A DNA stretch of 64,000 bases from Betaproteobacteria bacterium (GCA_023259135.1 JAHFQX010000004.1:645-64644); one strand, 5' to 3'; positions 40,040 to 60,371 are shown, counted from the stretch's first letter. Notes: generated from the letters alone by a model not told the origin. Program-made: numbers and translations.

Positions 40040-41695
40040 CTACTGCCCCCCAAGCTCCCGGTAACGGTCGCAGGCGGTGGGCATTTCCAGTTGGCAGGCT
40101 GTTCGGAAGTCTTGCCGGGCCCCCGGCCGGTCTCCCAGCGCCAGCCGGCTGATGCCGCGGCCCAGGTAGCTCTTGCGGTTGTCGGGCAGTAGGCCCAGGG
40201 CCGCGTCGAACTCCGCCAAGGCTTCCGGATGCCGCCCCAGCTCCGCCAGCACCACCGCCCGGTTGTGATGAATGTGGCCGTCCTTGGAATTGATTTTAAA
40301 GGCCGCATCGTAGTCCGCCAGGGCCTCGTCGAAGCGGCGCAGGCGCTGGTATTCGACTCCCCGGTTGTAAAGGATGCGCTCGGTTCCCGGCGGGTTGGCG
40401 CGGCGCTGGGCCAGAATCGCGGCGTCGTCCCAGAGCAGCAGCGGATGGGAGAAGGTCCGCAGCCGGTCCGCCGCCGCCAGGGCCAGCAGCGCCGCCGCGA
40501 TGCCGACCACCCAGCGGCTACGGACGGCCCCCAACGGGGCCAGGATCCAGGGCAACGCGGCCAGCGCTCCGCCCATCCACAGATAACCGCGATACAGCAC
40601 GAAGGGTTCCTGAATCCTGACGGCGGCCAGCTCGGTGGCGAACAGCAGCCAAGGGAACAGCAGGGCGAAACCCAGCAGCCGGAGTTTCTCGGTGCGCAGC
40701 AGCAGCCCCATCGCCGTTACGCCGAACGCGACGAAGCCCGCCAGCCCCGCCACATAAGGCCAAGCCAGCAGGCTGGGAGCGAGGGGCTCCCGCATGTCCA
40801 CCGACATCCAGTAGGGATAGGGAAACATCCACAGCCCGAGATACTTGAAGAACAAGGTGGCCTGGGTGGCGATGCTGGCGGCATAGGGGTTTCCGGAAGG
40901 AGCGCCCGGCATGGCCTCCAGCATACCTTGGGCGAAGGGTTCGTAGGATGCGCCCAACAGGCCCTTGATTTTGAGCACCATGAATCCGGCGATGATGCCG
41001 TAAGCAAGGAATGCTCCCCAAGGGATGCGCCGCGCCGCGCCGGCGGGCAGCAAGGCGGTCAGAGCCAAGGCTACGGCGGGAACCATGATGGCGTGCTCTT
41101 TGGAGAACAGCGCGAAAAAATACCCGGCCACGGCGGCGGCGAACCATTTTGTTTTGCCGGTAGTCAGTCCCCGCCAGTGGAACAGCAAGGTCAGCCAGGC
41201 TCCCAAGGTGGCCATGACGGTGCTGCGCTGGGTCAGATAGGCCACCGCGTAGACCGAAACCGGATGCAGCAGGAACAGCAAGGCGCAGCAAAAAGCCCAA
41301 GCGTCGGGGGACAGCGTCGAATCGGAGCGGAATCCGAAGGAGGGAAGCGGCGCCGCGGCGAACAATTGCCGCAGCAGGGCGAATAAAGCGATTCCCACCC
41401 CGCCGTGCAGCAGCAGATTCCCCAGCCGGAACCAGATGAGGTCCTGGCCCAGCCCGTTCCAGGTCCAGCCGAAGCTGGCATAGGCAAACCAGCGCCGGCC
41501 GAAATCGAACAGCGCGCCGGCGGCCGCCGGGGCCTTGCCGTCGAAGAAATACATGTCGTCGAAGACCAGCGGGCTCCATAGAAAAGGCCCATAGAGCAAG
41601 GCCGCGGCCAGCAGAAGCAGTCCCGCCCAGCGGAAAAAGGGGCGGCGTGACGGGCCGGAAGCGGGCAGCGGTGTTGCGGCGGGTTGGAAGGGCAT
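40040..41695 (-). CDS. TMTC-like polytopic membrane glycosyltransferase (GT-C) with C-terminal TPRs
   Basis: PLVFDD first-loop acidic pair, FRLGNLLLH, LFLLHPVSVYAVAYLTQRS, SKEHA, YRGYL, TPR tail. Confidence 0.75.
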   Translation of the reverse strand: MPFQPAATPLPASGPSRRPFFRWAGLLLLAAALLYGPFLWSPLVFDDMYFFDGKAPAAAGALFDFGRRWFAYASFGWTWNGLGQDLIWFRLGNLLLHGGVGIALFALLRQLFAAAPLPSFGFRSDSTLSPDAWAFCCALLFLLHPVSVYAVAYLTQRSTVMATLGAWLTLLFHWRGLTTGKTKWFAAAVAGYFFALFSKEHAIMVPAVALALTALLPAGAARRIPWGAFLAYGIIAGFMVLKIKGLLGASYEPFAQGMLEAMPGAPSGNPYAASIATQATLFFKYLGLWMFPYPYWMSVDMREPLAPSLLAWPYVAGLAGFVAFGVTAMGLLLRTEKLRLLGFALLFPWLLFATELAAVRIQEPFVLYRGYLWMGGALAALPWILAPLGAVRSRWVVGIAAALLALAAADRLRTFSHPLLLWDDAAILAQRRANPPGTERILYNRGVEYQRLRRFDEALADYDAAFKINSKDGHIHHNRAVVLAELGRHPEALAEFDAALGLLPDNRKSYLGRGISRLALGDRPGARQDFRTACQLEMPTACDRYRELGGQ

Positions 41696-41754
41696 GGGAG
41701 GATCTCTAAAAATTCTCCGCTTTTACGGGCGCGAACGGTGTCTTGGTATTCAAG

Positions 41755-42060
41755 CTACTGTTTCTGGGCCAATCGCAGCACCAGTTCCCGGGTGCGGGTT
41801 TCCACGAACGCTTCCGTGTAACCCCGCTCCTTCAAGCCCCATTTGAAGGCGTTGCCCAGCCGAGCCTTGCCTAGCAGGCCGAGCCGGCGTTCGCGCCGGA
41901 ACTTGGCGGCCCGCAGATAGGTTTCCTCCAGGGCGGCGGCGAGCCGCTTGGATTGCCGCGCCTGGCCGTCGGGGGGCGGGCAGCGCTTGGCCAGATCGGC
42001 CACCAACACTTGGGCGAATGCCTCGATGTCCTGGCGGAAAAGCTTGGCGAAAATGTTCAT
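41755..42060 (-). CDS. Hypothetical 101-aa basic protein, pilin-associated
   Basis: Clean ORF filling the gap between pilA and the TMTC-like gene; no recognised domain. Confidence 0.7.
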   Translation of the reverse strand: MNIFAKLFRQDIEAFAQVLVADLAKRCPPPDGQARQSKRLAAALEETYLRAAKFRRERRLGLLGKARLGNAFKWGLKERGYTEAFVETRTRELVLRLAQKQ

Positions 42061-42137: not shown

Positions 42138-42162
42138 AAAAAACCCCTCCGAAGAGGGGCTC
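42138..42162 (-). terminator. Rho-independent terminator after pilA
   Basis: Minus strand GAGCCCCTC-TTCG-GAGGGG-TTTTTT, about 20 nt past the pilA stop. Confidence 0.85.
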
Positions 42163-42180
42163 TGCGAGGCATGGGGCTAT

Positions 42181-42609
42181 TTAGCACTTGATGCCGCGAG
42201 AGGCATCGCATGCGCTGCCGGTCAGGGACCAAGCGATGGCCGGGGTGCCCAGGGTGGGGGTCATGGTCAGGGCCATGTTGGTGCCGGCGGCGGTGGTGGC
42301 TTCCAGGGTGGGGGCGGAAATCACTCCGTCGGTCACCGTGACGCCGCCAGTGATGTATTTGATGCTGCCCGCCGCGGAAGAAGCCGGCACGCCGTTGGAG
42401 CCGTTGGTGCAGCCGGTCAGGGTTCCCAGTTCCTGGGCGCACATGGCCACCGCGGTCTTCAGGGATCCCAGGCCGGTCAGAGCGCCCGCCGCCTTGGTGC
42501 GCTGGGTGTAGTCCTGGTAAGCCGGGATGGCCACCGCCGCCAGAATGCCGATGATCGCCACTACGATCATCAATTCGATCAAGGTAAAGCCTTTTTGCAG
42601 TTGTTTCAT
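42181..42609 (-). CDS. pilA: Type IVa major pilin
   Basis: MKQLQKG|[27 protein letters not shown] class III signal; four Cys; own sigma54 promoter and terminator. Confidence 0.95.
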
Positions 42610-42668
42610 GATGAAGCTCCCGTGAAAGTTGGAAAAGCATCCGGAAAGACCCGGACTGAGGCCGGCGC

Positions 42669-42684
42669 TGCAATTATTGTGCCA
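42669..42684 (-). promoter_or_regulatory. Sigma54 (RpoN) -24/-12 promoter of pilA
   Basis: Minus strand TGGCAC-AATAA-TTGCA, exact consensus, about 60 nt upstream of the pilA ATG. Confidence 0.9.
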
Positions 42685-42818
42685 TTACTGCCGAAGCTCC
42701 CGAGGGCCCGGCCGCTAAGGTCCCCCAGAAGGGGCAAGCCGGGCTACGCCGGAGGGGGTTGGCGGGCCCTGTGCGGCGTAGCCGCTTGCTGGGGGGATGG
42801 GCAAGAGATGGCATAAAG

Positions 42819-42833
42819 TGACGAACTGCGTCA
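42819..42833. promoter_or_regulatory. Candidate upstream activator (PilR-type) site
   Basis: Inverted repeat TGACG-N5-CGTCA about 135-150 nt upstream of the sigma54 site; function inferred from position only. Confidence 0.35.
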
Positions 42834-44885
42834 GTTTATGGTTTCCTGGACGGGAGTCGCGGTTCGTTCCGCCACCCAGCGTTCCAGTTCTTGGCGCAAG
42901 CGGGCAATGACCGGCTCCCACTGGCCCGGCGCCTCCTGGCGGAAAATCCGCAGGGTCGGATACCAGGGGCTGTCTTCCCGGTCCAGCAGCCAGCGCCAGC
43001 AGCCGTCGAAGCGGGACAGCATCCAGGTGGGCTTGCCCAGGGCTCCCGCCAGGTGGGCCATCGAGGTATCCACGGTGATGACGAGGTCCAGGTGGGCGGC
43101 CAGCGCCGCGGTATCGGCGAAATCCGTCACTTCGTCCATCCAATCGAGCATGGCGCGGGCCTCCGCAACCTCGGGCCGCTGTTGGGCCGGGGTGCCTTTT
43201 TGCAGGCTGACCCAGGAAATGCCGGGGATGGAAAAAAGCGGGACGAGCTGGTCCAGCCGCAGGCTGCGCCGGCGGTCCACCCGGTGGGCGTCCGGCAGGT
43301 TCTTGCGGGCTTCCCCGGCCCACACCAGCCCGACCCGCGGGCCCCCGGAGGGGGGCAAGCGCTTACCCCATTGGGCGGTCCGTTCCGGGGCCGGGAACAG
43401 ATACGGCACGGCGGCGGGAATAGTTTCCAGGGTGGTGCCCAGAACCAGGGGCAAGCTCAGCAGGGGGCACTGGAGGTCGAATTTCGGCAGCGGCTCCCCT
43501 TCCGCGAGTACCGCGGCCGGCCCTGGCACGGTGGCCAGCAGGCGCTTCAAGGGCGGCTGGCATTCCAGCAGAACCCGCCCGCCCTGCTTCGCCACCAAGG
43601 CGGCGTAGCGCACGAATTGCAGGGTGTCGCCAAATCCTTGCTCGGCCCAGAGCAGCAGGGTTTTTCCCTGCAAGGGGCCCCCGTCCCAGCGGGGCTCGCG
43701 GAACTCGCGGGGATAGACGCGCAGCCGCCGGGTTTCCTGCCAGCGGGCTTCGTATTCCGGCCACCCTTCCCGATAACGTCCTTGTAACAACAAGGCCGTG
43801 GCGTAGTTGAAGCGGGCCAGATGGAAATCCGGGTCCAGTTTCAAGGCCCGGCTGTAGCAGGCGATGGCTTCGTCTACCCGCCGCTGGGATTGAAAAGCGA
43901 TTCCCAGGTTATTGTGGGGGGCTGCATTATTAGGCTGGAGGGTGATCGCTTTTTGAAAGTATTCGATTGCGACGTGGTATTGACCTTCGTCCCAAAGCGC
44001 GCTTCCCAGGTTGTTATAAACGTCCCACATCTTCGGATTGAGGGCCAGGGCTTTCCGGTAATGGGCAATAGCGTCAGCCGAAGCGCCTTGGTCCCGCAAG
44101 GCGTTGCCCAGGTTGTTGTGGACGGCATCCAGTTCGGGGTTGCCTTGTAGCGCCAGGCGATAGCAGGCGATGGCGTCGGCCGTCTTGCCTTGATCCCGCA
44201 GGGCGTTGCCCAGATTGTTGTGGGCAGCGTAAAGGTCCGGCTTGATTTCCAGGGCCCGCCGGAAACAGGCCACCGCCTCGTCGAGCCTATCCAGTTCGGA
44301 AAGCACCAAGCCCAAATTATTGTGGGCCTCGAAAAGCCGGGGCTCCAGTTCGAGGGCCTGCCGGAAGCAGGCTTCGGCGGCGGCCCATTGACGCTGATCC
44401 ATGAGGATATCGCCCAGCCGGCGGTGGGCTGGGGCAAAATCGGGGGCGTGGATCAAGGCCCGCCGATAGCAAGCCGCGGCTTTTTCTTGCTCCCCTTGAT
44501 CGGCATGAAGATTTCCTAGATTGAAATAGGCTTGGTACAGATCGGGCTTGAGCGCCAGGGCGGCCTCGAAACACGCCTTGGCTTCATCGGGCCGTCCCAG
44601 GTCGACCAGCGCCAGCCCCAGATTGTTGTGGGCCCGATAAGCCGTCGGCTTGAGGGCCAGCGCCTTGCGGAAGCCGGCGGCCGCGGCTTCCAGTTGTCCC
44701 AGATCCTGTTGGGTGTCGGCGAGCCGGTACCAGGCTTCCCACCAGCCCGGAGCCCGGGCCACTGCCCGCCGGAAACGCCGGAGGGCTTCTTCCGGATTGG
44801 CGATCCGCTGCGCCCCCCCCTGCCGTATTTGCCAGCGGGCCGCCAGCTTGGCCATGCCGGGAATCTTTTCTAAAAAGCCGATCAT
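42831..44885 (-). CDS. Multi-TPR protein with C-terminal GT-B (GT9-like) glycosyltransferase domain
   Basis: About 10 TPRs (AHNNLG), GWPEYEARW, EQGFGDTLQFVRY, DLVITVDTSMAHLAGALGKP, DSPWYP. Confidence 0.85.
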   Translation of the reverse strand: MIGFLEKIPGMAKLAARWQIRQGGAQRIANPEEALRRFRRAVARAPGWWEAWYRLADTQQDLGQLEAAAAGFRKALALKPTAYRAHNNLGLALVDLGRPDEAKACFEAALALKPDLYQAYFNLGNLHADQGEQEKAAACYRRALIHAPDFAPAHRRLGDILMDQRQWAAAEACFRQALELEPRLFEAHNNLGLVLSELDRLDEAVACFRRALEIKPDLYAAHNNLGNALRDQGKTADAIACYRLALQGNPELDAVHNNLGNALRDQGASADAIAHYRKALALNPKMWDVYNNLGSALWDEGQYHVAIEYFQKAITLQPNNAAPHNNLGIAFQSQRRVDEAIACYSRALKLDPDFHLARFNYATALLLQGRYREGWPEYEARWQETRRLRVYPREFREPRWDGGPLQGKTLLLWAEQGFGDTLQFVRYAALVAKQGGRVLLECQPPLKRLLATVPGPAAVLAEGEPLPKFDLQCPLLSLPLVLGTTLETIPAAVPYLFPAPERTAQWGKRLPPSGGPRVGLVWAGEARKNLPDAHRVDRRRSLRLDQLVPLFSIPGISWVSLQKGTPAQQRPEVAEARAMLDWMDEVTDFADTAALAAHLDLVITVDTSMAHLAGALGKPTWMLSRFDGCWRWLLDREDSPWYPTLRIFRQEAPGQWEPVIARLRQELERWVAERTATPVQETIN

Positions 44886-46912
44886 CGGGTTTTTTCCCCG
44901 GTATTGGATTCATTCGTCAGCCATGAGCGGTAAAGATTTTCCAGGCCGCCGACGAACCGGGTCCCATCCAGCAAGGGGGAAGCTGCCAAGCGGGGGCGCA
45001 AGGCGCGGCGCCATTCCGCCAGGGTCGGGAGGTCGGCGGCGAGGGTCTGGCCGATCCGCGCGTAGCCGTCGGCATCCTCGGCGATCCAGGCTTCGAGACC
45101 GGCGGCGCGGAGGAGGGAGGCCCCCATCCGGGAAGCATGCCGCCGCCCCGGCCAGGTGATCACCGGCACCCCCATCCACAGGGCTTCGCAGGTGGTGGCG
45201 GCGCCGCCGTAGGGGTGGGTGTCCAGGGCGATGTCCACTTCCCGGTAGGCCGACAGGTGGGCGTGCCGGGTCGAGACCCAGGCCGACAAGCCGATCCGCT
45301 CCGGAGCGACGCCCTCGGCCTCGAACAAATCGAGGACGGCTTTCCGCAAGGCCGGATCCGCCAGGCTCTGAGCTTTCAGAATCAGGCGGGAGCGGGGCAC
45401 GCCCCGCAAAATCCTGGCCCACAGCCGCAGCAACTCCGGGTGGATCTTGGCGAAGTTGCCGAAGCAGCCGAAGCTCACGAAGCCTTGAGCCAGGGCCGGA
45501 CTGGGTCCCGGCTGCGGCGCGTCTGCCGCGGGCCGATAGCAGAAATAACTGCCGGGCAGCCGGGCCAGGGTTTCGGTGCCGAGACGATCCGCTTCGCCTG
45601 CCGGATCGGCGACGCCGTCGGTGATGCGGTAATCCATGTTGAAAAGCCCGGTGGTGTTGGGGTAACCCAGGTAGCTGGCCTGGATGGGCGCCGCCCGCCG
45701 AGCGAAAACCCGCAGCCGGTTGCCGGCGGTATGGCCCGCCAAATCCACCAGAATCCCCACTCCGTCCCGGCGGATGCGATCCCATAGCGCATCGTCGCTC
45801 ATCCCGGCGCAGGCCACCCATTGATGGCCGGTGCTCATCAAGCGCCGGCTGACGGCATCGGGGGCGCCGTGTACATCATAGCAATAGATCTCGAATTGGC
45901 GGCGGTCGTGATGCCGCAGAATGGGCTCGATGAAATAAGCGACGCTGTGCTCCCGAAAATCCGCCGAGACATAGCCTACCCGTACCGGGATTGCGGAGGC
46001 TGGGGGCGCGGCTTTGGATGGGGCAGTTTCTTGCTCCAGCCAAGCGCCAAATTCCCGATGGGCGGCGAAAATTTGCTCCTCGCTCCATCGAGGGGCGTAG
46101 TTGGCCGCCAGCAACCGGTTGCTGCGGGGCTCCGCCCAGTCGGGGCGCAGTGCCGCAGCCTGTTCGAAGGCGGCAATGGCCGCTTCCACCCGTCCTTGCG
46201 GGAGCAAGGCGTTGCCCAGGTTGTAGTGGAACACCGCGTTGTCGGGCCGGTGCGCCAGCAATTCCCGGTAGCAGGCTTCGGCCCCGCCATAGTTTCCCTG
46301 GGCGCCCAGCGCCATCCCCAGGTTGCTGCGGGCCTCCAGAAAGTCCGGTTGAATTTCCGCCGCCCGCCGGAAATGATGTTCGGCTTCGGCTAGGCGCTCG
46401 GCATCGTGGAGCAGATTGCCCAGCAAAAAATGCAGCCGGGAGTTTTGCGGGTCCTCTTGCAGGGCTTGCCGGTAAAGGGGCTCGGCCTCGTCGGCGCGCC
46501 CCAGGTCGGCCAGGGCCCGGGCCAGACCCTCCCGCGCCGGGGCGAGCGCCGGCTCCGCCTCCAGGGCTTGCCGGAAACAGGCCGCCGCTTCCTCAAGCCG
46601 GCCCTGAGCCCGCACTACGTTGCCCAGGTTGTAGTGGAGTGGGGCGATGGCCGGAGCCAGGGCCACCGCCCGGCGAAACGCCGCTTCCGCCTCCGCCGTC
46701 CGGCCCGCCGCCTGACAGGCCAAGCCCATGCCGTTGTGGGCCTCGAAGCCGCCGGGGAAAAGCGCCGCCGCTTCCCGGAAGCGGGCCTGGGCTTCGGCGT
46801 GCCGGCCGGCGCCGCGCAGCGCTTCCCCTGCGGCGCAGAGATTTTCATAGAGGGACGGGGGCGCCTGTTTGACCCCCAAGACTTCCCGGATGATTTTGAG
46901 CAATAAGCTCAT
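44882..46912 (-). CDS. TPR + GT41 glycosyltransferase (SPINDLY/OGT-like)
   Basis: Start MSLLLK overlaps upstream stop; RVGYVSADFREHSV, DLAGHT, YLGYPNTTG, DIALDTHPY, EALWMGVPV. Confidence 0.88.
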   Translation of the reverse strand: MSLLLKIIREVLGVKQAPPSLYENLCAAGEALRGAGRHAEAQARFREAAALFPGGFEAHNGMGLACQAAGRTAEAEAAFRRAVALAPAIAPLHYNLGNVVRAQGRLEEAAACFRQALEAEPALAPAREGLARALADLGRADEAEPLYRQALQEDPQNSRLHFLLGNLLHDAERLAEAEHHFRRAAEIQPDFLEARSNLGMALGAQGNYGGAEACYRELLAHRPDNAVFHYNLGNALLPQGRVEAAIAAFEQAAALRPDWAEPRSNRLLAANYAPRWSEEQIFAAHREFGAWLEQETAPSKAAPPASAIPVRVGYVSADFREHSVAYFIEPILRHHDRRQFEIYCYDVHGAPDAVSRRLMSTGHQWVACAGMSDDALWDRIRRDGVGILVDLAGHTAGNRLRVFARRAAPIQASYLGYPNTTGLFNMDYRITDGVADPAGEADRLGTETLARLPGSYFCYRPAADAPQPGPSPALAQGFVSFGCFGNFAKIHPELLRLWARILRGVPRSRLILKAQSLADPALRKAVLDLFEAEGVAPERIGLSAWVSTRHAHLSAYREVDIALDTHPYGGAATTCEALWMGVPVITWPGRRHASRMGASLLRAAGLEAWIAEDADGYARIGQTLAADLPTLAEWRRALRPRLAASPLLDGTRFVGGLENLYRSWLTNESNTGEKTR

Positions 46913-49056: not shown

Positions 49057-50682
49057 CTACGGCCGGTAGCCGGGAATGGCCGTAACGTCCACCGCGTCGA
49101 TTTGGTGAGGATCGAGGAACTGTTCGGCGTATCGGAGGTAGACCTGGTCGCGGACGAAGATGTCGAAGAGGTCCGGATCGATGTGGCCGTTGAGCTTGAA
49201 TTTGCCCAGGATGGCGAGGGCCTCGGTCAGGGATTTGCCTTTTTTATAGGGCCGGTCCTTGGCGGTGAGGGCCTCGAAGATGTCGGCGATGGCCATGATC
49301 CGCGCCTGCACCGACATCTGCTCCCGAGTGAGGCCTCGGGGATAGCCTTTTCCGTCCATGCGCTCGTGGTGGCCGCCGGCGTATTCGGGAACGTTGCGCA
49401 GATGGTTGGGCCAAGGCAGCGATTCGAGCATGGTGATGGTGACTTCGATGTGATGGTTGATCACCTGGCGCTCCTCGGCGGTCAGGGTTCCGGAGCGGAT
49501 GGCAAGATTGGCGACCTCCTCCTCGGTAAGGAAGGGGGCGTCCTTTCCGTGGGGATCTTTCCATCGATAGCGCTGGGCGAGGGTGCGGATGCGCTCGACA
49601 TCCTCGTCGCGCATGGCTTCGGAGCCGATATTGCAATGCCGGAGGAACTCCCGGTCCAAATCGTACTGCCGCAGCCGTTCCTTGAAATCTTGCTCCAGCC
49701 GGGACAAGGTATCGACGTCGCCCTGGGCGGCGGCGCCGGCCCGCAGCCACTCGATCTCGGCGTCCCGCTTGAGCACCTCGAAGCGGGTGTCGATCAGGTG
49801 GATGCGGTCGAACAGGGTTTGCAGCTTGGTGGCTTTGTCCACCACATGCACCGGAGTGGTGACCTTGCCGCAATCGTGGAGCAGGCTGGCGATTTTAAGC
49901 TCATGCCGGTCCAGGTCGCTCATCCTGAAATCCTTGAAGGCGCCGATGGATGCGTCGTTGACGGCCTCCGCCAGCAGCATGGTGAGCTCCGGCACCCGCT
50001 GGCAATGGCCCCCGGTGTAGGGGGACTTGTCGTCGATGGCGGCGTTGATCAATTGGATAAACGCCTCGAACAGCTCTTCCAGTTGATTGATGAGCAGCCG
50101 GTTGGTCAGCGCGACGGCGGCCTGGGAGGCGAGGGATTCGGCCAGATGCTGATCGGCCTCGGAGAACGGCGCGATCTCGCCGGAGGCCGGATGGCGGGCG
50201 TTGATGAGCTGCAACACGCCGATCACCTGATTCTCGTGATTCTTCATCGGCACCGTCAGGAAGGATTTCGACCGGTAGCCGGTATTTTGGTCGAAGCGCT
50301 GGGTGCCGCTGAAATCGAAGCCTGCCTCGGTGTAGGCGTCGGCGATGTTGACGGTTTTCTCGTTCAGGGCGGAGTAGGCCGCCACCATGCTGTTGTTGGG
50401 ACGCCCTTCGGCGTCGTAAAGCGGCAGCGGGGGAAAGGGAATGGGCCGGCCCGAGGTTCCCCCCATGGCGATTCCCAGGCTGTCGGTGCGCATGATTTCG
50501 AAGCGCAGTTGTCCATTCACTGCCCGGTACAGGGTGCCGCCGTCGGCGTGGGTGATGGTCTTGGCGGCCACCAGAATGTTCTCCAGCAGCCGGTCGATAT
50601 TCCTTTCCTGGGAAAGAGCAGTGCCGATGCGGGTGAGCTGCTCCAGGCGATAGAACAGGTCGGCGAAGGGGGGGCGGTCCAT
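49057..50682 (-). CDS. GAF + HD-GYP cyclic dinucleotide phosphodiesterase
   Basis: GAF (TGYRSKSFLTVPM, IGVLQLIN); YTGGHCQRV, LLHDCGK, HHERMDGKGYP, ADIFEALT. Confidence 0.9.
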   Translation of the reverse strand: MDRPPFADLFYRLEQLTRIGTALSQERNIDRLLENILVAAKTITHADGGTLYRAVNGQLRFEIMRTDSLGIAMGGTSGRPIPFPPLPLYDAEGRPNNSMVAAYSALNEKTVNIADAYTEAGFDFSGTQRFDQNTGYRSKSFLTVPMKNHENQVIGVLQLINARHPASGEIAPFSEADQHLAESLASQAAVALTNRLLINQLEELFEAFIQLINAAIDDKSPYTGGHCQRVPELTMLLAEAVNDASIGAFKDFRMSDLDRHELKIASLLHDCGKVTTPVHVVDKATKLQTLFDRIHLIDTRFEVLKRDAEIEWLRAGAAAQGDVDTLSRLEQDFKERLRQYDLDREFLRHCNIGSEAMRDEDVERIRTLAQRYRWKDPHGKDAPFLTEEEVANLAIRSGTLTAEERQVINHHIEVTITMLESLPWPNHLRNVPEYAGGHHERMDGKGYPRGLTREQMSVQARIMAIADIFEALTAKDRPYKKGKSLTEALAILGKFKLNGHIDPDLFDIFVRDQVYLRYAEQFLDPHQIDAVDVTAIPGYRP

Positions 50683-53210: not shown

Positions 53211-53975
53211 TCAGAACTCGAAAATGTCCCCATTGCGGAGCATTCTGGGGTGGTGGGCGCCGGCGTCACGCTCTACCTCGCTCATGGTGAGCTCTATCTC
53301 GCTGGGCTTCAAGTGGGTAATGTAGATTTCGGCCGGACGCCGGAGCTTGGCCAACTCCTCGGCCAGCATGCTCGGACAAAGATGCATGGAGTCTATCGCC
53401 AGGCCTTTTTCCCTATTGCAGAAAGCCGTTTCGATGATCAAGTAGCGCAGATTGTCGATCCGGTTCACTTCGTCCCACAAGGCATCGTTGGTGGTGGTGT
53501 CCCCGCTAAACACCAGGCTGGCAGCCCCGCTGTCGATACGGTATCCGACCGCGGGAACGACGTGCTTGGCGGGGAGCGGCGTGATTTTCCGCTTGCCGAG
53601 GCGCACCGTTTGCCCCAGCGCCACCGCGCTGTAGCGCATGAAGGGATTTTCGGGATTGGGGATGCGGGTGAAATCCGGCCATAGCTTCCAATTGAACAGA
53701 TGCTCCCGAAGAATCTCCAGGGTCGGATCTATGGCATGCACCGTAATGGGCCGGTTCCGCATGCAGCCGACGGTATCCACCAGGAAGGGAATGCAAGCGA
53801 CGTGGTCCAAATGGGAATGGGTGACGAAGACATGACCGATCCGGGCCAAGGCATCGAGGGGCAAATTCCCCACCCCCGTTCCGGCATCGATCAGGATGTC
53901 ATCGTCCAGCAGCATGGACGTCGTCCGAAGCTCTCCGCCGATGCCGCCGCTGCAACCCAGTATGCGCAGTTTCAT
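53211..53975 (-). CDS. 3',5'-cyclic nucleotide phosphodiesterase, class II (MBL fold)
   Basis: LGCSGG, IDAGTG, THSHLDH, HLFNWKLWPDF, ITHLKP. Confidence 0.85.
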   Translation of the reverse strand: MKLRILGCSGGIGGELRTTSMLLDDDILIDAGTGVGNLPLDALARIGHVFVTHSHLDHVACIPFLVDTVGCMRNRPITVHAIDPTLEILREHLFNWKLWPDFTRIPNPENPFMRYSAVALGQTVRLGKRKITPLPAKHVVPAVGYRIDSGAASLVFSGDTTTNDALWDEVNRIDNLRYLIIETAFCNREKGLAIDSMHLCPSMLAEELAKLRRPAEIYITHLKPSEIELTMSEVERDAGAHHPRMLRNGDIFEF

Positions 53976-53981
53976 GAATGG

Positions 53982-56204
53982 TTATTTGGTTTCGAATGTG
54001 AAAACCCCATCCCAGTCCGCCCCCGGGGGGGCGGCGCGGAAATGGGCGATACGCTCAAGGTAAAGGGCGTACAGCGTTGCCTGGGGGGCTGCCTTTTGCA
54101 GGTTCAGGAGTTGCAGTTCGGCCATGTCCCACTCTTGACGCCGATAATGCCGCAGCGCCTTGGCGAAAAGCTCCAGCTCATCCAGCCGGCCTTGCTCCAC
54201 TTCGCCGATCAAGCCGATGGGCTCGAAGATGGCCACCGGCTCTTCCTTGCCCTTGACCTTGACCCGGTCGATCTCCCGGAACGCCATGTCGGGCACCCAG
54301 GCGCGGGTCTGTTCGCCGACTATCATACCCACCCCGTACTGTTTTGTGATCCCCTCCAGCCGGGAAGCCAGGTTCACGGCATCTCCCATCACCGTGTAGG
54401 CCAGGCGGATTTCCGAGCCCATGTTGCCCACGCTCATGCGGCCGCTGTTGACCCCGACGCCGACGCGGATTTCCGGCCAGCCTTCGGCCTTGAAATGGGG
54501 CTGCAGCGCGTCCAGCGTGGCTTGCAGCTCCATGCCCGCCAGCACGGCGTTGCGGGCATGATCGGGATCGGCCAGCGGCGCTCCCCAGAATGCCATGATG
54601 CAATCCCCCATGTATTTGTCGATGGTGCCCCGATGCTTATAGATGACCCGGGTCAGGGGAGTCAGGAACTCGTTCATCAAACGACTCAGTTCCTTCGGGT
54701 CCAGGCCCTCCGAAATGGTGGTGAAGCCCCGGACATCGGAGAACAGCACCGACATCTCCCGGCTTTCCCCTTCCATGGAGAAGCTTTCCGGATTCTGGCT
54801 CATCTCGTCCACCAATTCGGGGGGCACGTACTGGCCGAACAGCCCGGTGATTTGCCGCTTGGCCCGGGTTTCGACGAAGAACCCGTAGGACATGTTGAAA
54901 GCGAACAACAGAAAAATCATCAGGATTCCCGAGGCGATGGGCAGCACGATATTGCCGTAGTGCCAAGCCGCGACGTTGACGACCAGGGCGCCCCCGAGCA
55001 CGATGCAAGTGACCAGCGATCCCTTGAAGGGGCTCAGAACCGGCAGCAACAAGGCGAGCAGCAGGCCAGAAACGAACAGCGACGCTACTTCGGCGCCGAT
55101 GACGTAGGGGGGTTTTTGGGGAATCTTCTGATCCAGCATCCCGGCGATGAGATTAGCGTGAATTTCCACTCCCGGATAGACCGGCGCCACCGGGGTAGAA
55201 CGCAGGTCCAGCAGCCCCGGCGCGGTGGTGCCGATCAAGGCGATCTTGCCTTTCAAGGCCGCTACCGGGACCCGCTCCCGCAGCACATCGGAGACGGAGA
55301 TGTACGGAAAGCTTCCTTGGGGACCCCGGTAAGGAACCAGGGTGGAAACGATTTCGTCAACGGGAATCCGTATCGGGCCGACTTCCAGCCACTCTAGCCC
55401 GGTGTAGTCCTGGGAAGCGGCTTCCTCGGTGAACCCCGGCACCACCGGAGGGGAACCCAGCAAGGCGCGGATCACGGCCAGCGACAAGGATTCGTAATAG
55501 GCGCCTTGATATTCCGCCAGCATGGGAACCCGCCGGGAAACCCCGTCTTCGTCCACCCACGGATTGAAGTGCCCGGCTCCGGCCGCGTTCTTGACGAACT
55601 CGGGAAGATTTGAGCCATAGCCCGACCAAGTGGTGAAACCGACGGGGCGGCCGGCGAAAGCATCGGGCCCTAAAACGGGCGGGGGCAGCAGGCCGGATTT
55701 GGTGCCCTGGCCGGGAGCGTCGCCACTGCTAAAATAATAGCCCAGCACCACTTTGCGCCCCCGCATTTTTCTGGCGAACACCTCGTCATGCTGGAGACCG
55801 GGGCGCACCGCGCTCAAGGCCGACTGGAATTCCTTCACCCCCTTGAGCTGCTTGCGTCCCAGGTCTTCCAGGACTTTCAGGCCAGAACTTTCGTCTCGCT
55901 CGGCGAAAACCACGTCAAAACCGACGACGGCGATGCCGTAGTGGTCGAACAGCTTGTCCAGCAGTAATCCGAGGCGGTCCCGGCGCCAAGGCCAGCGGCC
56001 CTCCTCGGCCAGGCTTTTTTCGTCGATATCTAGAACGACTACGCGCTGATCCACGGTGCGCGGCATGGTCAGGCGAACCCGCGCGTCGTAGGCGATAGCC
56101 TCCAGCCGGCGGATCAATGGAGCGTCGTAGATTTTCGCGGCGTAGCCGACGAATAGGGCGACGATGATCAGCCCCCCGACAATGCGGATCAGATGCTTCT
56201 TCAT
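53982..56204 (-). CDS. CHASE2-domain class III adenylate cyclase
   Basis: CHASE2 (DIDEKS..GRWPW, GVEIHAN) plus 3 TM; LFSDVRGFT, DKYMGD, YTVMGDAVNLASRLE with ATP-specifying Lys and Thr. Confidence 0.92.
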   Translation of the reverse strand: MKKHLIRIVGGLIIVALFVGYAAKIYDAPLIRRLEAIAYDARVRLTMPRTVDQRVVVLDIDEKSLAEEGRWPWRRDRLGLLLDKLFDHYGIAVVGFDVVFAERDESSGLKVLEDLGRKQLKGVKEFQSALSAVRPGLQHDEVFARKMRGRKVVLGYYFSSGDAPGQGTKSGLLPPPVLGPDAFAGRPVGFTTWSGYGSNLPEFVKNAAGAGHFNPWVDEDGVSRRVPMLAEYQGAYYESLSLAVIRALLGSPPVVPGFTEEAASQDYTGLEWLEVGPIRIPVDEIVSTLVPYRGPQGSFPYISVSDVLRERVPVAALKGKIALIGTTAPGLLDLRSTPVAPVYPGVEIHANLIAGMLDQKIPQKPPYVIGAEVASLFVSGLLLALLLPVLSPFKGSLVTCIVLGGALVVNVAAWHYGNIVLPIASGILMIFLLFAFNMSYGFFVETRAKRQITGLFGQYVPPELVDEMSQNPESFSMEGESREMSVLFSDVRGFTTISEGLDPKELSRLMNEFLTPLTRVIYKHRGTIDKYMGDCIMAFWGAPLADPDHARNAVLAGMELQATLDALQPHFKAEGWPEIRVGVGVNSGRMSVGNMGSEIRLAYTVMGDAVNLASRLEGITKQYGVGMIVGEQTRAWVPDMAFREIDRVKVKGKEEPVAIFEPIGLIGEVEQGRLDELELFAKALRHYRRQEWDMAELQLLNLQKAAPQATLYALYLERIAHFRAAPPGADWDGVFTFETK

Positions 56205-56323: not shown

Positions 56324-56992
56324 CTATGAGTTCTTGAGGAAGAATTCCATCTTGACCCCGGCCAGTTCGATGACGTCATGGTCGTTCAAGGGATGGGCCT
56401 GGGCGTCCAGATTCTGGCCGTTGACGATGGGGAAGTGAGTTCCTTCCACGTGGGTGATGAAATAACCATGGGGCCGGCGGGCGATCACCGCCACCTGCAC
56501 GCCGGGTTTCCCGAGGGTGGTCAAGTTCTTGGTGAGGACCAGTTCCTTGCCCACTCCCGGCCCGCTGATAATCTGGATGGCGGCCAACGGGGGTTCGGCA
56601 GCCTGGGCGGCGGGGGTTGCCGTGCTGGAAGGCGTGGCATGGGCCGCGGCGGGGGGGCGCAGTATCATGGTCTTCTCGAAATCCTCCGCCGCCGGCTTGA
56701 CGGCAGTGTCGCCGATGTACTTGAGCTTGTATTTGCCGATTTCGATGACGTCGTTGTTTTGCAGAAAGTGTTTCTTGATGGGGTTGCCGTTGACCAGGGT
56801 GCCGTTGGTGCTGTTGAGATCCTCCAAAAACGAATCGTGCAGGATCGTCGTCACCGCCGCATGGTCGCCGCTGACCGCCAGGTTGTCGATGATCACATCG
56901 CTGGTGGGTTTCCGGCCGATGACGACCCGCTCCTTGTCGAGAGGTACTTCCCGGATCACCATGTCGTCAATGCTGAGAATCAGTTTTGCCAT
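56324..56992 (-). CDS. Twin FHA domain protein
   Basis: Start MAKLIL; IGRK..D...SGDHA...DLNSTNGT canonical FHA, Ala/Pro/Thr linker, second degenerate FHA. Confidence 0.88.
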   Translation of the reverse strand: MAKLILSIDDMVIREVPLDKERVVIGRKPTSDVIIDNLAVSGDHAAVTTILHDSFLEDLNSTNGTLVNGNPIKKHFLQNNDVIEIGKYKLKYIGDTAVKPAAEDFEKTMILRPPAAAHATPSSTATPAAQAAEPPLAAIQIISGPGVGKELVLTKNLTTLGKPGVQVAVIARRPHGYFITHVEGTHFPIVNGQNLDAQAHPLNDHDVIELAGVKMEFFLKNS

Positions 56993-57008: not shown

Positions 57009-57833
57009 CTACTTGAGCCAGGATAAAAAGCGGCGCAACCAACCATCGTCCGCGGGGAAAGGGTGAAGAATCTTGACCAGCACGGCGGACACGTTGTCCT
57101 TGCCGCCATTATCGTTGGCGGCCTGTATGAGCCGATTCGCCGCCAATTGCGGGTCGGCGCCGAAATGCCGCAGGGTTTCGCCCATGCGCTCATCCTCCAC
57201 CATGTCATTCAGTCCGTCGGAGCACAGCAAGTAAATATCTTCCGGCCTGGTGTCATGGGTGTGAATTTCCGGCTCCACTGCGGGATCCACGCCCAGGGCG
57301 CGCGTGACCAGATTTTTGTTCCGGGACAGCCGGGCGTCCTCCTGGGTGATAAGCCCGCTGTCGATTTGCTCCTGAAGCAAGGAGTGATCCCGCGTCAATT
57401 GCCGCAGTTCCCCCGCGCGCAGCCGGTAAAGCCGGGAGTCCCCGATGTGGGCGACGCTCAACTGATTATCGTAGAACAAGGCGGCCACCAGGGTGGTCCC
57501 CATCCCGGCGTATTGAGGGCGGCTTTGGGCCGCTCGGTAGATGTAATCGTTGGCTTGGACGACTTTGTCCCGCAACAGATGTTCGATGTCTTTTTGCTCG
57601 GCATGGCGCGGAATGTGGCCATTCCACTCGTCGAATTGTCGATTCATTTCTTCCCGCAGCACCGCCACCGCCATGCCGCTGGCCACTTCTCCGGCATTGT
57701 AGCCCCCCATGCCGTCGGCCAGCACCACGAAGCCGATTTCCGCGTTCCAGCCTATGGCGTCCTCGTTGTGGGCGCGGACCAGCCCGGTATGGGTGGCGCT
57801 GGCGATGCGCAAAGCGTGTCCGACGCCGGCCAT
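57009..57833 (-). CDS. PP2C-type (Stp1/PppA) Ser/Thr phosphatase
   Basis: RAHNED, LADGMGG, GMGTT, HIGDSR, LCSDGL, GGKDNV. Confidence 0.93.
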   Translation of the reverse strand: MAGVGHALRIASATHTGLVRAHNEDAIGWNAEIGFVVLADGMGGYNAGEVASGMAVAVLREEMNRQFDEWNGHIPRHAEQKDIEHLLRDKVVQANDYIYRAAQSRPQYAGMGTTLVAALFYDNQLSVAHIGDSRLYRLRAGELRQLTRDHSLLQEQIDSGLITQEDARLSRNKNLVTRALGVDPAVEPEIHTHDTRPEDIYLLCSDGLNDMVEDERMGETLRHFGADPQLAANRLIQAANDNGGKDNVSAVLVKILHPFPADDGWLRRFLSWLK

Positions 57834-57839
57834 GGGCCT

Positions 57840-60371
57840 TTATCCTTGGCCTTGGGGGGGGAGCGTGGCGGCGCAGTGCCGCAACGCTTGGGCCAATTCG
57901 CCGCCGGTCTGGTAGCGCTGCCCGGGATCCTTGGCCAGCGCTTTGTCGATGATCTGGGCCACGCAAGGAGGCGTATCGGGATGCAACTGGCGAATGTCGG
58001 GATGGGGTTCGTTGGCGATCTTGAACATCAATTGCGCCATGGAATCTCCCTGGAACGGGAGTTGCCCGCAGGTCAATTGATATAAAGTCACCCCCAGAGA
58101 GAACAGGTCGGAACTCCCCCCCACCTTCTTGCCGGAAAGCTGTTCGGGAGACATGTAGGAGGGGGTGCCCAGCACCATGCCGGTCTTGGTTTTGCTGGAA
58201 TCGGTGATGCGGGCGATGCCGAAGTCGGTGACCTTGACGGCGTCGCCGGCGGCTTCATACATGATGTTGGCTGGCTTGATATCCCGATGCACGACGTTCA
58301 AACCATGGGCATAATCCAGGGCATCGGCGACCCGGGCGACGATGCTCAGCACCACGGGCAGCGACAGCAGTTGGCCCGGCTTGGTATGGGGCGCCAAATC
58401 GTGGCCTTTGAGGAACTCCATGGCGATGTAGGCGAGATCGTGCTCCTCGCCGGCATCGAAGATCGTCACGATATTGGGATGGTTAAGACGGCCGGCGGTT
58501 TCGGCTTCGCGGAAAAAGCGGCTTTTCGCTTCTTCCAATTCGTCGGCCTCGAATTCCTGGGATAGGGCCATGGTTTTGATGGCCACCACCCGCCCGATTT
58601 TCGGGTCCTTGCCGAGATACACCACTCCCATGGCCCCCTTGCCCAATTCCTTCTCCACTTGATAGCGCCCCAGCATGGGTTTTTCCACCGCGCCGCTTTC
58701 AGGGGTCAGGATGCTGGCGTTGGAGCGGGGGTTGCTGCCTCCCAGAATCACCGTTTCGGCCATGGCCTTGGCGCGGGACAGGCGTTGCTCCAAATCCCGG
58801 AATTTGGGGTTGTGGTCCGACATGTAGCGGAATACCGCCTCGGCTTTGTTGAATTGCCGCTTGCGCTCGAAGTCCAAGGCCAGATTGTAGAGGCTGTCCA
58901 GTAGCGTGTCGTCCACCGGGCATTTGCGGAATTTGTCGAAGGCCATGTCCAACTGGCCCTGCCCCTGAAAAGCGAGACCCAGCATCCGGTTGCTTTCCGC
59001 CGAGTCTGCGTCGGACTTGAGCTTGCCGCGCTCGGTCACCAAGAAGCGCTTGGTGGTCAGCACCAGGTGGCCGACGACCAGTAAGGTGGCGGGAACCATC
59101 AGTTGCAGCCACATGAGCTGGGTCGCCAGCAAGGAGAACTGGGCCGCCAACACGGCGATCAACAATGCCGCGGTGAGGGCCGCGCCGGCGCCGGCCTGCA
59201 AGCGGGGCAGCAGCAGGATGATGTAGAGCGCCACCAGTAGAAAGGCGGCTTTCTCCGCCCAAACCGCCCACGCCGGAGCGGTGACGAAATCGCCCTTGAG
59301 AATGCTGGAGACCGCGTGGGCCAGAGTCAGTACCGGGGCCATCGCCGGAGAGACGGGGGTGACCATGTGGGTACCGATGCCGGTGGCGGTGGCGCCGACG
59401 AGGACGATTTTATCCCGGTATTTTTCGGGGGCGATTTTTCCCGTATAGACGTCGTAAAAAGAATCCACCTGGAACGCGGGCCGTCCTTCCGAGCCGCGGT
59501 AATAATAGGTATACATCTGGGAGTAGGGGTCGGTGGCGATCTTGATCTGGCCCAAGGCCACTTCTTCTCCCAGCCGCACCCGCAGGTCTTGCGTGTCCAG
59601 GTTGGCGGCTTTGGCCGCCAGCATGAGGGACAGGGAGGGAAAATACTGGTTGTAGTACCGGACCAACAGGGGTTCGCTGCGCACCGCGCCGTCCACGTCG
59701 GGAATCGCGTTGACGTGGCCCAGCCCGGCGGCCTGCTGTCCCAATGCTTCCAAGGGATAGAGGATGGACGTGGCCGGCGGGGGAAGCAAGCCGTTGGCGA
59801 TGGCCCCCCCGGGGTCGGCAACCTGGGTCGCGGCGCGGCTTGCCACCCAGCCGGGCAAGGGGCGGTCCGGGTTGCCCGCGGGCTCTCCCAGGCGAAATTG
59901 CATTGCCATCAAAACGCGCCCGGAACGGCTCAGGGATTCGGCCAGTTTGCGGTCAGTGTTGAGAGTCTGCTCCGCTTCCTGAAGGGTGCTGCCGAATTCG
60001 CCGTTGGGGTGCGGGGCGGCCTCTTGCAGGGCCATCAGCCGATTGATGTAGGCCAATCCCCGGTCGACTTCCGGTTCGGAATAGAGCACCGTCAACCCGA
60101 TCGCCTTGGCTTGAGCGGCGGACAGCAGATCCACCATTTTGGCCTGGATGTCCCGGGGCCAGGGCCACCGGCCGAGGTTGGCGATGCTGGGGTCGTCGAT
60201 GGCGATGACCGCCACCTGGGGGCTGGGCTGCCGTTGGGACAGGCCAATGCCGATATCGTAGGCTTTGCGTTCCAGGCTCTGCAGCAGATCGGTTCCCGAG
60301 GTCAGCAGCAACACCAGGGAAAGGATCACTCCCGCGAACCAGTCGGTTTTCCAAAAGCCGGTCTTGCCCAT
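57840..60371 (-). CDS. CHASE2-domain membrane Ser/Thr protein kinase
   Basis: CHASE2 (IDDPS..GRWPWPR), 3 TM, TPR-like linker, GKGAMGVVY, VAIK, HRDIKPAN, DFG, GTPSYMSPE. Confidence 0.92.
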   Translation of the reverse strand: MGKTGFWKTDWFAGVILSLVLLLTSGTDLLQSLERKAYDIGIGLSQRQPSPQVAVIAIDDPSIANLGRWPWPRDIQAKMVDLLSAAQAKAIGLTVLYSEPEVDRGLAYINRLMALQEAAPHPNGEFGSTLQEAEQTLNTDRKLAESLSRSGRVLMAMQFRLGEPAGNPDRPLPGWVASRAATQVADPGGAIANGLLPPPATSILYPLEALGQQAAGLGHVNAIPDVDGAVRSEPLLVRYYNQYFPSLSLMLAAKAANLDTQDLRVRLGEEVALGQIKIATDPYSQMYTYYYRGSEGRPAFQVDSFYDVYTGKIAPEKYRDKIVLVGATATGIGTHMVTPVSPAMAPVLTLAHAVSSILKGDFVTAPAWAVWAEKAAFLLVALYIILLLPRLQAGAGAALTAALLIAVLAAQFSLLATQLMWLQLMVPATLLVVGHLVLTTKRFLVTERGKLKSDADSAESNRMLGLAFQGQGQLDMAFDKFRKCPVDDTLLDSLYNLALDFERKRQFNKAEAVFRYMSDHNPKFRDLEQRLSRAKAMAETVILGGSNPRSNASILTPESGAVEKPMLGRYQVEKELGKGAMGVVYLGKDPKIGRVVAIKTMALSQEFEADELEEAKSRFFREAETAGRLNHPNIVTIFDAGEEHDLAYIAMEFLKGHDLAPHTKPGQLLSLPVVLSIVARVADALDYAHGLNVVHRDIKPANIMYEAAGDAVKVTDFGIARITDSSKTKTGMVLGTPSYMSPEQLSGKKVGGSSDLFSLGVTLYQLTCGQLPFQGDSMAQLMFKIANEPHPDIRQLHPDTPPCVAQIIDKALAKDPGQRYQTGGELAQALRHCAATLPPQGQG

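Follow-up and report, generated by a model that had tools for sequence, protein, structure and literature searches.

A seven-gene signalling core around a GAF-bearing PilB ATPase points to an undescribed way of switching type IV pili on and off

Here, we describe a gene cassette in a 64,000-nucleotide (nt) stretch of DNA from a betaproteobacterium (GCA_023259135.1, JAHFQX010000004.1:645-64644), in which a PilB-type extension ATPase of type IV pili carries a GAF domain and is encoded together with enzymes of cyclic-nucleotide and phospho-threonine (phospho-Thr) signalling. By the window we mean this whole stretch; the cassette lies at 40040-60371, with all genes on the minus strand. The real unit within it is a seven-gene core on one strand, which encodes in order a CHASE2-Ser/Thr kinase (STK), a PP2C phosphatase, an FHA protein, an adenylate cyclase (AC), a cyclic-nucleotide phosphodiesterase (PDE), the GAF-bearing ATPase (GAF-PilB) and a GAF-HD-GYP protein. 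On balance we favour, at somewhat better than even confidence, the explanation that this core is a conserved regulatory module around GAF-PilB as extension ATPase, all steps of which we infer.

An initial annotation of the window had described 13 consecutive minus-strand genes at 40040-60371. Our open reading frame (ORF) coordinates agree with these genes and with the gaps given there, from which a 221-bp gap before pilA was missing. Pfam and NCBIfam agree with its domain calls, and predicted structures settled the GT-C fold and the second of the two FHA domains. The kinase gene (57840..60371; Pfam CHASE2 1.7e-56, Pkinase 1.7e-55) is followed after 6 bp by that of the PP2C Ser/Thr phosphatase (57009..57833; Pfam 1e-15) and, after another 16 bp, by that of the twin-FHA protein (56324..56992; Pfam FHA 8e-20). 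A gap of 119 bp leads to the gene of the CHASE2 class III adenylate cyclase (53982..56204; CHASE2 9.6e-56, Guanylate_cyc 2.3e-20), which lies 6 bp from that of a class II PDE with metallo-beta-lactamase fold (53211..53975; Lactamase_B_2, and PDEase_II at 43 bits with a cut-off of 23.7). GAF-PilB (50739..53111; GAF 1e-10, MshEN-like 5e-9, T2SSE 8e-116) comes 99 bp further on, and the GAF-HD-GYP protein (49057..50682; HD_5 2.1e-43, GAF 8e-15), a predicted phosphodiesterase of cyclic di-GMP (c-di-GMP) or cGAMP, after 56 bp. By a crude hydropathy scan, both CHASE2 proteins have the order TM-CHASE2-3TM-output, where TM is a transmembrane segment, and the same scan found no TM segment in the remaining cassette proteins apart from the GT-C enzyme described below.

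That these seven genes form a unit is supported by their recurrence: the same gene order is found in dozens of genomes, so that the arrangement is far beyond chance. Our family sample takes one genome from each of 40 families of the same order, and 19 of these genomes encode a full-length GAF-PilB ortholog (63-78% identity). We searched about 19 kb on each side of GAF-PilB in these 19 loci by tblastn with 14 window proteins. The full core order was found in 10 of them (with the kinase fragmented in one, G013), the PDE gene in 17, the PP2C and FHA genes in 16, the HD-GYP gene in 15 and the AC gene in 12, with pilA in range in 9. A species scan (one genome per species), for which the query was the N-terminal 370 residues of GAF-PilB, showed that at least 580 genomes encode a relative of this segment, and the best 80 of these make up a second set of loci, for which the denominators are the loci that could be assessed. 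In this set, the upstream PP2C and FHA genes are each present in 62/62 loci, the AC gene in 57/62, and the STK and PDE genes in 56/62 each; all five occur together in 50/62. The HD-GYP gene is present in 58/58, the full core in 39 of the 48 loci with both flanks, and pilA, which as a rule comes after the core, lies within 11 kb in 32/44. These 80 are metagenome-assembled genomes of Burkholderiales and Betaproteobacteria, Gallionella, Sideroxydans, Sideroxyarcus, Nitrosomonadales and Candidatus Ferrigenium straubiae KS. The protein family as a whole comprised 5753 clusters at 90% identity (E up to 1e-10, among 8000 candidates scored), and these carry generic names only.

The way in which the core is reduced or extended in other genomes is also informative. 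In reduced cassettes such as those of G018 and G038 (G, L and C numbers are our handles for genomes, loci and contigs), PDE and GAF-PilB are the most persistent pair. The PP2C and FHA genes are kept without the two CHASE2 proteins in, for example, G014, G034, G024, L068, L086 and L104, and in G024 they stand directly before PilB, with no cyclase or PDE. Both members of the CHASE2 pair are absent from four loci (L068, L082, L086, L104) and one is absent from three (L094, L096, L106); that the two tend to be lost together is a hint that they may work as a pair. In a class-wide sample, distant GAF-PilBs (about 41-43% identity, in other orders) occur in 14 of 400 other genomes, and 4 of the 14 lie beside a gene for a CHASE2-cyclase, PDE or GAF-HD-GYP protein.

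What distinguishes the motor is its GAF domain, for which the matches in the PDB are solely GAF domains that bind cyclic nucleoside monophosphates (cNMPs): CyaB2 (1ykd, GAF-A/B; E 2.7e-28), PDE10A (1.4e-10), PDE2A (2.7e-10), PDE5 and PDE6. In an alignment of 26 GAF-PilB sequences, V128 D129 .. T132 G133 Y134 R135 T136 are invariant, and this stretch aligns with 'VD..TGFRT' of the PDE2A GAF-B domain, which we take to be ligand-contacting. GAF-PilB is unlisted in a search with the NCBIfam c-di-GMP_motif at E up to 0.01, though it has the Pfam MshEN fold domain at 36 bits; the MshE-like ATPases encoded on contigs C31 and C39 of the same genome score 68 bits each with that motif.

The remainder of the protein resembles PilB. 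The ATPase core has its best PDB match in Myxococcus xanthus PilB (E 2e-107), scores 488.3 bits with the NCBIfam PilB model versus 439 with GspE, and is 40-42% identical to canonical PilB versus 33-37% to other paralogs. The T2SSE core holds GPTGSGKT, DIIMVGEMRD and TGHLVFATLHTN, which we assume to be the Walker A, Walker B and His box motifs, respectively. The four cysteines of a tetracysteine site (C652, C655, C717, C720) are invariant; the spacer within residues 652-720 is unusually long, with about 61 residues, and is conserved in the family. In a tree of T2SSE proteins, GAF-PilB forms a clade of its own with 100% support. A model of the complex of GAF-PilB (residues 14-790) with the twin-FHA protein scored 0.00, which speaks neither for nor against binding. 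Among the relatives, the GAF-PilB ortholog at G028:C14:174309-176678 lies in a 1042-aa open frame, and long PilB variants of about 800 aa (G003:C35, G017:C3, G011:C50 and C85, G024:C1:472535) match only from residue 170-360 onwards, so that other N-terminal sensor domains may be present in them.

The neighbouring enzymes suggest which nucleotide the GAF domain could read. The best PDB alignments of the cyclase are to structures derived from Cya2 and to CyaB and CyaC, with an E value of 2e-34 for CyaB (3r5g). It has a Lys in 'GTIDKYMGD', at the position of a Glu in the guanylate cyclase Cya2 (2w01), and a Lys is also found at this position in the engineered adenylate cyclase 6fht, in CyaB and in CyaC; the Thr in 'YTVMGDAVN' is as in CyaB and CyaC. 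We take these Lys and Thr positions to be the residues that specify adenine. The HxHxDH metal site of the PDE is present as HSHLDH. The match of this protein to PDEase_II (PF02112) spans just profile positions 82-143 of 340, and its alignment to yeast PDE1 (4ojv) is weak (E 5e-5); all 30 of its 30 nearest Atlas clusters carry PDEase_II.

The GAF-HD-GYP protein best matches PmGH of Persephonella marina (4mcw; E 4e-28) among PDB entries and also matches V-cGAP3 (5z7c), and its 'LHDCGK' and 'HHERMDGKGYPRG' align to the HD and GYP motifs of PmGH. PmGH has the same GAF plus HD-GYP architecture. Unlike PmGH, the window protein has an insertion of about 100 residues between the HD and GYP halves (residues ~289-394), and its GAF domain is closest to the cNMP-binding GAFs of PDE5 type (PDE5 match in the PDB, E 2e-17). 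A similar insertion has been tied to the preceding GAF domain in REC-GAF-HD-GYP proteins, according to a 2026 report (PMC12943098).

Further readers of cyclic nucleotides are found close to the core. At 21745..23040 on the plus strand (ORF from 21619), the window encodes a fusion, assigned by Pfam, of a Hanks-type Ser/Thr kinase with a cNMP-binding domain, the 'FGE..RTAS' cassette of which is intact; the fusion is analogous to protein kinase A (PKA). In 12 other loci, a full-length ortholog follows pilA at a distance of a few kb. Among the 40 relatives, the fusion is present in 14 of 19 with GAF-PilB versus 4 of 21 without it. In addition, a gene for a cNMP-binding-rhodanese protein stands directly upstream of GAF-PilB in 15/80 and 4/19 loci of the two sets (e.g. 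L098 8876-9970 and L043 8937-9959; G028, G013, G037 and G015). The window genome lacks this gene, and in L098 the interval from the cyclase to the cNMP-rhodanese gene showed no PDE. Both kinds of gene strengthen the reading that the cassette speaks cAMP, and the kinase-cNMP fusion offers a link from cAMP to phospho-Thr.

The other branch of the core has the components of a threonine phosphorylation switch. The VAIK, HRDIKPAN, DFG and SPE motifs of the CHASE2 kinase are intact, and the phosphatase matches NCBIfam Stp1_PP2C at 254 bits, above the cut-off of 230. In the FHA protein, G26 R27, S41..H44 and N63 G64 of FHA1 are invariant in our alignment; the G-R, S-x-x-H and N-G residues canonical for phospho-Thr binding are retained in FHA1 but not in FHA2. 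By sequence FHA2 is below threshold (E 0.068). Its model has the FHA fold, with GarA (6i2q_B) as best match at Z 13.6 (85 residues aligned, rmsd 1.9), followed by EmbR (Z 13.4) and the FHA domain of Bdellovibrio DgcB (Z 13.3), so that the label 'twin FHA' is right. Directly after FHA1 is the motif F-E-K-T108-M-(I/V)-L-R, in a segment modelled as disordered (pLDDT <50). The strict motif is found in 60/66 and 12/16 orthologs, and a Thr in [ED][KR]T-x-x-[LIM], with a hydrophobic residue at +3, in 65/66 and 16/16. We propose that Thr108 of this linker is the likely target of the kinase and that the protein would act as a switch or clustering adaptor.

Comparable arrangements are known in other systems. 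Type VI secretion systems (T6SS) have the PpkA/PppA/Fha1 pathway of threonine phosphorylation, which likewise consists of a Hanks kinase, a PP2C and an FHA protein encoded beside the genes of a secretion-type machine. Unlike T6SS Fha1, the window protein has two FHA domains, and with 35.8 bits it is far below the cut-off of 120.25 of the NCBIfam model VI_FHA. The initial annotation stated that no T6SS genes are present here, and no T6SS family was found among the window ORFs scanned, a subset of all. Other parallels are GarA/OdhI and Rv1747 of mycobacteria, in which, as in the window protein, an FHA domain goes together with a Thr acceptor located in a stretch without fixed structure. Phosphorylation of the ETTS motif is described as switching GarA off (PMC5448819), and Rv1747 as having a pair of FHA domains with phospho-Thr sites in the linker between them (PMC8339232), a layout which the window protein resembles. 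The architecture is analogous only: unlike in GarA, the Thr acceptor is located after FHA1 and not before it, the score with NCBIfam OdhI is 55.7 bits (cut-off 200), and there is no fusion to an ABC transporter, unlike in Rv1747.

Which pilus machine the motor would serve is suggested by the other pil genes of this genome. pilC and pilD (15626..17745, plus strand; profile searches and tblastn) are followed by coaE and zapD (together 15626-19193) and lie 33 kb from GAF-PilB. No T2SSE gene stands upstream of pilC in the window; within 13388-19193, a LysR gene (14468-15379) and a 316-aa ORF are found where pilB would be expected. The genes pilM to pilQ are on another contig, and two PilT-like ATPase genes and four genes with prepilin motifs (minor-pilin-like) are together on a third. 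A T2SSE gene is directly upstream of pilC in 18/18 relatives that lack GAF-PilB and have pilC, as compared with 8/20 genomes with GAF-PilB, the window genome included. The 12 negatives were checked by tblastn of the 4.2 kb that precede pilC, alongside two genomes as positive controls, and the counts for relatives without GAF-PilB (21 relatives, 18/18 for pilB-pilC and 4/21 for the kinase-cNMP fusion) include G025, an unpublished genome. In these two control genomes (G037, G033), no pilA was found beside canonical pilB. We infer that GAF-PilB is a type IVa (T4a) pilus extension motor that has replaced pilB at the pilC locus in most carriers.

Four PilB-like ATPases are encoded in the window genome: those on C31 and C39, an orphan TfpB equivalog, and GAF-PilB. 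The PilB/GspE-like ATPases of C31 and C39 have intact MshE-type c-di-GMP motifs, each with a platform protein, pseudopilins and a secretin, and are possible targets of a change in c-di-GMP made by the GAF-HD-GYP enzyme. The orphan TfpB-type gene (contig C70 31549-33471; L041 5550-7472) scores 908 bits with a cut-off of 850, and its neighbours, encoding an ammonium transporter, a BamC-like lipoprotein and a transglutaminase, are unrelated. Acinetobacter baylyi has two extension motors, PilB and TfpB, on one T4a machine (PMC11656802; PMC8213720). The window genome likewise has a TfpB equivalog besides its GAF-PilB; in contrast to the latter, no GAF domain is ascribed to either of the A. baylyi motors in PMC11656802.

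The initial annotation had treated all 13 genes as one unit with pilin glycosylation attached, and this is a claim that we revise. The signalling genes, GAF-PilB, GAF-HD-GYP and pilA are indeed linked across many families, but the glycosyltransferase (GT) genes form a variable island that differs between loci in number, kind, order and strand: any GT gene was found in 29/44 loci, the gene of the 101-aa protein in 18/44 and the GT-C gene in 8/44 (within 11 kb downstream). pilA (42181..42609), which encodes a type IVa major pilin of 142 aa (Pfam N_methyl and Pilin), looks separately transcribed. The 221-bp gap before it contains the only perfect TGGCAC-N5-TTGCA, the sigma-54 consensus, of the window (42669..42684, minus strand), 60 nt before the pilA ATG; with up to 2 mismatches the pattern is at chance level (32 matches vs 33.9 expected). 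Directly after pilA is a terminator-like hairpin with a T-run (42144..42157, minus strand), from a terminator scan that was overall not above chance. The GT variability and the sites around pilA together suggest that the region comprises one or more signalling-motor operons, an island of pilin-modification genes that varies between loci, and pilA under separate control.

After the GAF-HD-GYP gene and a gap of 30 bp come, as part of the island, two TPR-GT41 glycosyltransferases (46909..49026, Glyco_transf_41 4e-47; 44882..46912, 3e-52), both predicted to be cytoplasmic and without TM segments in the crude scan. The genes overlap by 4 bp, as does the second with that of a TPR protein with a weakly GT9-like C-terminus (42831..44885; Glyco_transf_9 25.2 bits, cut-off 22), homologs of which occur in 16/44 loci. 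Beyond pilA, the 101-aa protein (41755..42060), which travels with the TPR-GT genes, has no Pfam or NCBIfam match. The TMTC-like protein with C-terminal TPRs (40040..41695, directly downstream of pilA; model pLDDT 80) shows TPRs only in Pfam, and a Foldseek search of the PDB with its model also returned mostly TPR matches. In a wide search with VIA-align, the membrane part of the model proved to have the GT-C fold, matching Pmt4 at Z 18.5 (316 residues aligned, rmsd 3.9), Pmt1/2 and AglB at 18.1 each, ArnT at 16.4 and PglB at 16.0. D46 D47 in its first loop are invariant in 8 sequences, with pLDDT <50 at residues 46-63 of the model. The GT-C gene directly follows pilA in six loci, several of them labelled Gallionella or Gallionellaceae.

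This arrangement recalls TfpW, an arabinosyl/oligosaccharyl-transferase of Pseudomonas aeruginosa group IV pilins. According to its description, TfpW is encoded directly downstream of pilA, is polytopic, and has DDx in the first periplasmic loop and a C-terminal TPR (bioRxiv 10.1101/2020.04.19.049825). The window protein shares the position after pilA, the DD of loop 1 and the TPRs, and is likened to TfpW by architecture alone: the exact TfpW pattern YX6PFX7P is absent from it, the sequence reading 'YLGLWMFPYPYWMSVDMREP', and no genes for synthesis of D-arabinofuranose (D-Araf) were seen. It is probable that the pilin is O-glycosylated in the periplasm by this TfpW-like GT-C enzyme.

Other features surround the cassette. 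A gene for a universal stress protein (Usp; 60511..60939, minus strand; Pfam Usp 6e-26) is located 139 bp upstream of the kinase, and an ortholog precedes the kinase in 16/62 loci. Divergent from this end is a 326-aa ORF at 60754-61734 (plus strand) that belongs to no Pfam family; at least 13 other loci have a homolog in the corresponding position. The flank on the other side (33988-39978) has genes for a protein of sulphur transport, for one resembling 5'-nucleotidase and SoxB, and for a MacAB-type ABC exporter, as would fit an organism that oxidises sulphur. Neither tRNA genes nor Rfam families were found in the whole window.

How the core may work can be outlined as follows. An extracytoplasmic cue would be received by the two paralogous CHASE2 sensors. 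One of them would drive the adenylate cyclase, and the cAMP made would be removed by the adjacent class II PDE and sensed by the cNMP-type GAFs of PilB and of the HD-GYP protein; in many genomes, the linked kinase-cNMP fusion or cNMP-rhodanese protein may sense it as well. cAMP could thus gate pilus extension allosterically and, via the HD-GYP enzyme, lower c-di-GMP (or cGAMP). The other CHASE2 sensor would activate the Hanks kinase, opposed by PP2C, with Thr108 of the twin-FHA linker as the likely substrate, and the twin-FHA protein, like GarA or Rv1747, would serve as a phospho-switch or as an adaptor for clustering, with the motor or its partners as targets. GAF-PilB would act on an ordinary T4a machine (pilC/D, pilMNOPQ, minor pilins, pilT) and polymerise the adjacent, putatively sigma-54-driven pilin, O-glycosylated by the TfpW-like GT-C enzyme. 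The logic of writers, erasers and readers proposed in the initial annotation fits the cyclase Lys and Thr, the HxHxDH of the PDE, the cNMP type of both GAFs, the FHA1 residues and the kinase motifs. We are more tentative, at clearly less than even confidence, about the strongest form of this proposal, namely that cAMP binds directly to an extension ATPase of type IV pili, as allosteric ligand of its eukaryote-type cNMP GAF, in a dedicated circuit of CHASE2 cyclase and PDE, cAMP-gated HD-GYP, PKA-like kinase and CHASE2 kinase/PP2C/twin-FHA switch.

Several observations weigh against the module as proposed, or narrow it. The 80 loci are the closest ones and come from related genomes, so that they are not independent and the 19-locus sample is the fairer. 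Of the 14 distant GAF-PilBs, 10 have no cassette gene nearby and none has the kinase/PP2C/FHA trio; with the cyclase, PDE or HD-GYP gene at 4 of these loci, the cAMP module tracks GAF-PilB more widely than the phospho-Thr module does. NKFDE, presumably the signature of cNMP GAFs, is kept partly in GAF-PilB, where N160, F167, E172 and E173 are invariant, the region reads 'NSK..F....CEE', and the K and D positions are not canonical. With 488.3 bits the ATPase is under the cut-off of 675.65 of the PilB model TIGR02538 (profile positions 5-470 of 564). On the basis of the T2SSE tree, which leaves five PilB-like lineages unordered, with long branches, no sister relation of GAF-PilB to canonical PilB is claimed. 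Canonical pilB is retained in 8/20 GAF-PilB genomes and the window genome has an orphan TfpB-type motor, so that the role of GAF-PilB as T4a motor is a putative one. The window genome also encodes a second cyclase and about nine proteins with cNMP-binding domains, so that cAMP would not be private to the cassette. The circuit is consequently not self-contained, as had been supposed: besides these proteins there is the linked kinase-cNMP fusion at 21745-23040, pilC/pilD are 24 kb away, and pilMNOPQ, pilT and the minor pilins are on other contigs.

Expression as one transcript is similarly in doubt. Since pilA has promoter-like and terminator-like sites of its own, we would not expect it to share a transcript with the signalling genes. 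Between 41500 and 61000, neither sigma-70 promoters (6 sites vs 3.4 +/- 1.9) nor terminators (25 vs 20.4 +/- 5.2) exceeded chance level in our scans; the hairpin after pilA and a promoter-like site before the kinase are leads from these chance-level scans. In RNA library X1, near-identical contigs bridge the PDE/AC and PP2C/STK junctions, which is weak evidence, as a single transcript does not follow from contigs and DNA may be present in the library. The four best RNA runs, all of them in the form of contigs, contained 0.05 of the sampled words. Most RNA pieces are 85-95% alike and so come from relatives, and the high depth over 42328-42991 is due to the conserved pilin N-terminus of many organisms.

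These observations leave room for other explanations. It is possible, if somewhat unlikely, that GAF-PilB is a second, conditional motor like TfpB, or the motor of an adhesive, secretion or DNA-uptake pilus, the cassette deciding when its activity replaces or supplements that of the housekeeping motor. The 8/20 genomes with pilB beside pilC, the TfpB equivalog of the window genome, the separate clade of GAF-PilB and the two motors documented on one machine in A. baylyi would all agree with this. It is less easily reconciled with the 12/20 GAF-PilB genomes without pilB beside pilC and with the observation that the sole major-pilin-like gene found near any of these motors adjoins GAF-PilB; it also overlaps the explanation that we favour, from which it differs only in the motor's role. 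We consider it unlikely that the kinase/PP2C/FHA trio controls the cyclase or HD-GYP enzyme, and hence second-messenger levels, rather than the motor. The trio is upstream of the cyclase, it is separable from PilB, being absent from the distant loci, and FHA-regulated nucleotide cyclases exist, with the FHA domain of Bdellovibrio DgcB among our fold matches. Yet PP2C and FHA persist in loci without the two CHASE2 proteins, and in G024 they directly precede PilB with neither cyclase nor PDE.

Also unlikely, in our judgement, is that the cassette is mainly a converter of cAMP into c-di-GMP signals for the control of biofilms in general, with PilB as a passenger the GAF ligand of which is something other than cAMP, such as cGMP or a metabolite. 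Many ligands are known for GAF domains, the PDE5- and PDE2-type GAFs among our matches bind cGMP, the NKFDE signature is incomplete in the PilB GAF, and HD-GYP is conserved as much as PilB (58/58). Against such a converter, the best GAF match is the cAMP-binding CyaB2, the cyclase has adenine-type residues, PDE and GAF-PilB are the pair that persists in reduced cassettes (G018, G038), and other cNMP readers have been inserted directly beside PilB. It is highly improbable that chance or a local insertion brought functionally unrelated genes together, given the same order and strand in at least 50 genomes of many families.

The favoured explanation, a regulatory module around the GAF-PilB motor, can be compared with what is known of pilus control. 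MshE of Vibrio cholerae, PilB of M. xanthus and PilB2 of Clostridium perfringens are extension ATPases that bind c-di-GMP via MshEN, and in P. aeruginosa cAMP controls type IV pili via a transcription factor, in the Pil-Chp/CyaB/Vfr pathway (both from PMC11656802). In the former, as in GAF-PilB, which keeps an MshEN-like fold, the sensor is N-terminal and on the extension ATPase itself; unlike them, GAF-PilB has an extra GAF of cNMP type, and the synthase and hydrolase of the messenger are encoded alongside. P. aeruginosa CyaB is a class III cyclase similar to the window's cyclase domain. In contrast to the Pseudomonas pathway, the predicted receptor of cAMP would be the motor itself and the sensor a CHASE2 protein, and no Pil-Chp genes were found in the cluster. 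A 2024 review of PilB regulation lists c-di-GMP with MshEN, PilZ/FimX and inhibitory peptides, mentions cAMP only through Vfr transcription, and does not contain the words GAF and FHA (PMC11656802). A Ramlibacter genome paper and a Leptospira c-di-GMP paper were considered as candidates, and neither describes the cassette. The initial annotation had known of no characterised equivalent, and our literature search, which covered the text of papers available without subscription, gave the same answer. The parts are all of known kinds; of their combination, a cNMP-GAF PilB with cyclase, PDE, GAF-HD-GYP and kinase/PP2C/twin-FHA, we could find no description.

By what means bacteria control, at the level of the motor itself, the extension of type IV pili is still an open question. 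The cassette provides a sequence-defined, widespread and testable case of a motor with a different second-messenger sensor, encoded with the synthase and hydrolase of that messenger, and it suggests a mode of on-off control of pili that has not been described. We would like to point out that it gathers eukaryote-like modules (Hanks kinase/PP2C/FHA, PDE-type GAFs and a PKA-like kinase) round one bacterial nanomachine. Its carriers include groups of environmental importance, among them Gallionella, Sideroxydans and Candidatus Ferrigenium, for which attachment to surfaces matters for iron cycling. If the motor is indeed gated by cAMP, it would be the first ATPase of the secretion superfamily to be gated by cAMP and phospho-threonine, in a system that would be widespread in Burkholderiales, including the iron-oxidising Gallionellaceae.

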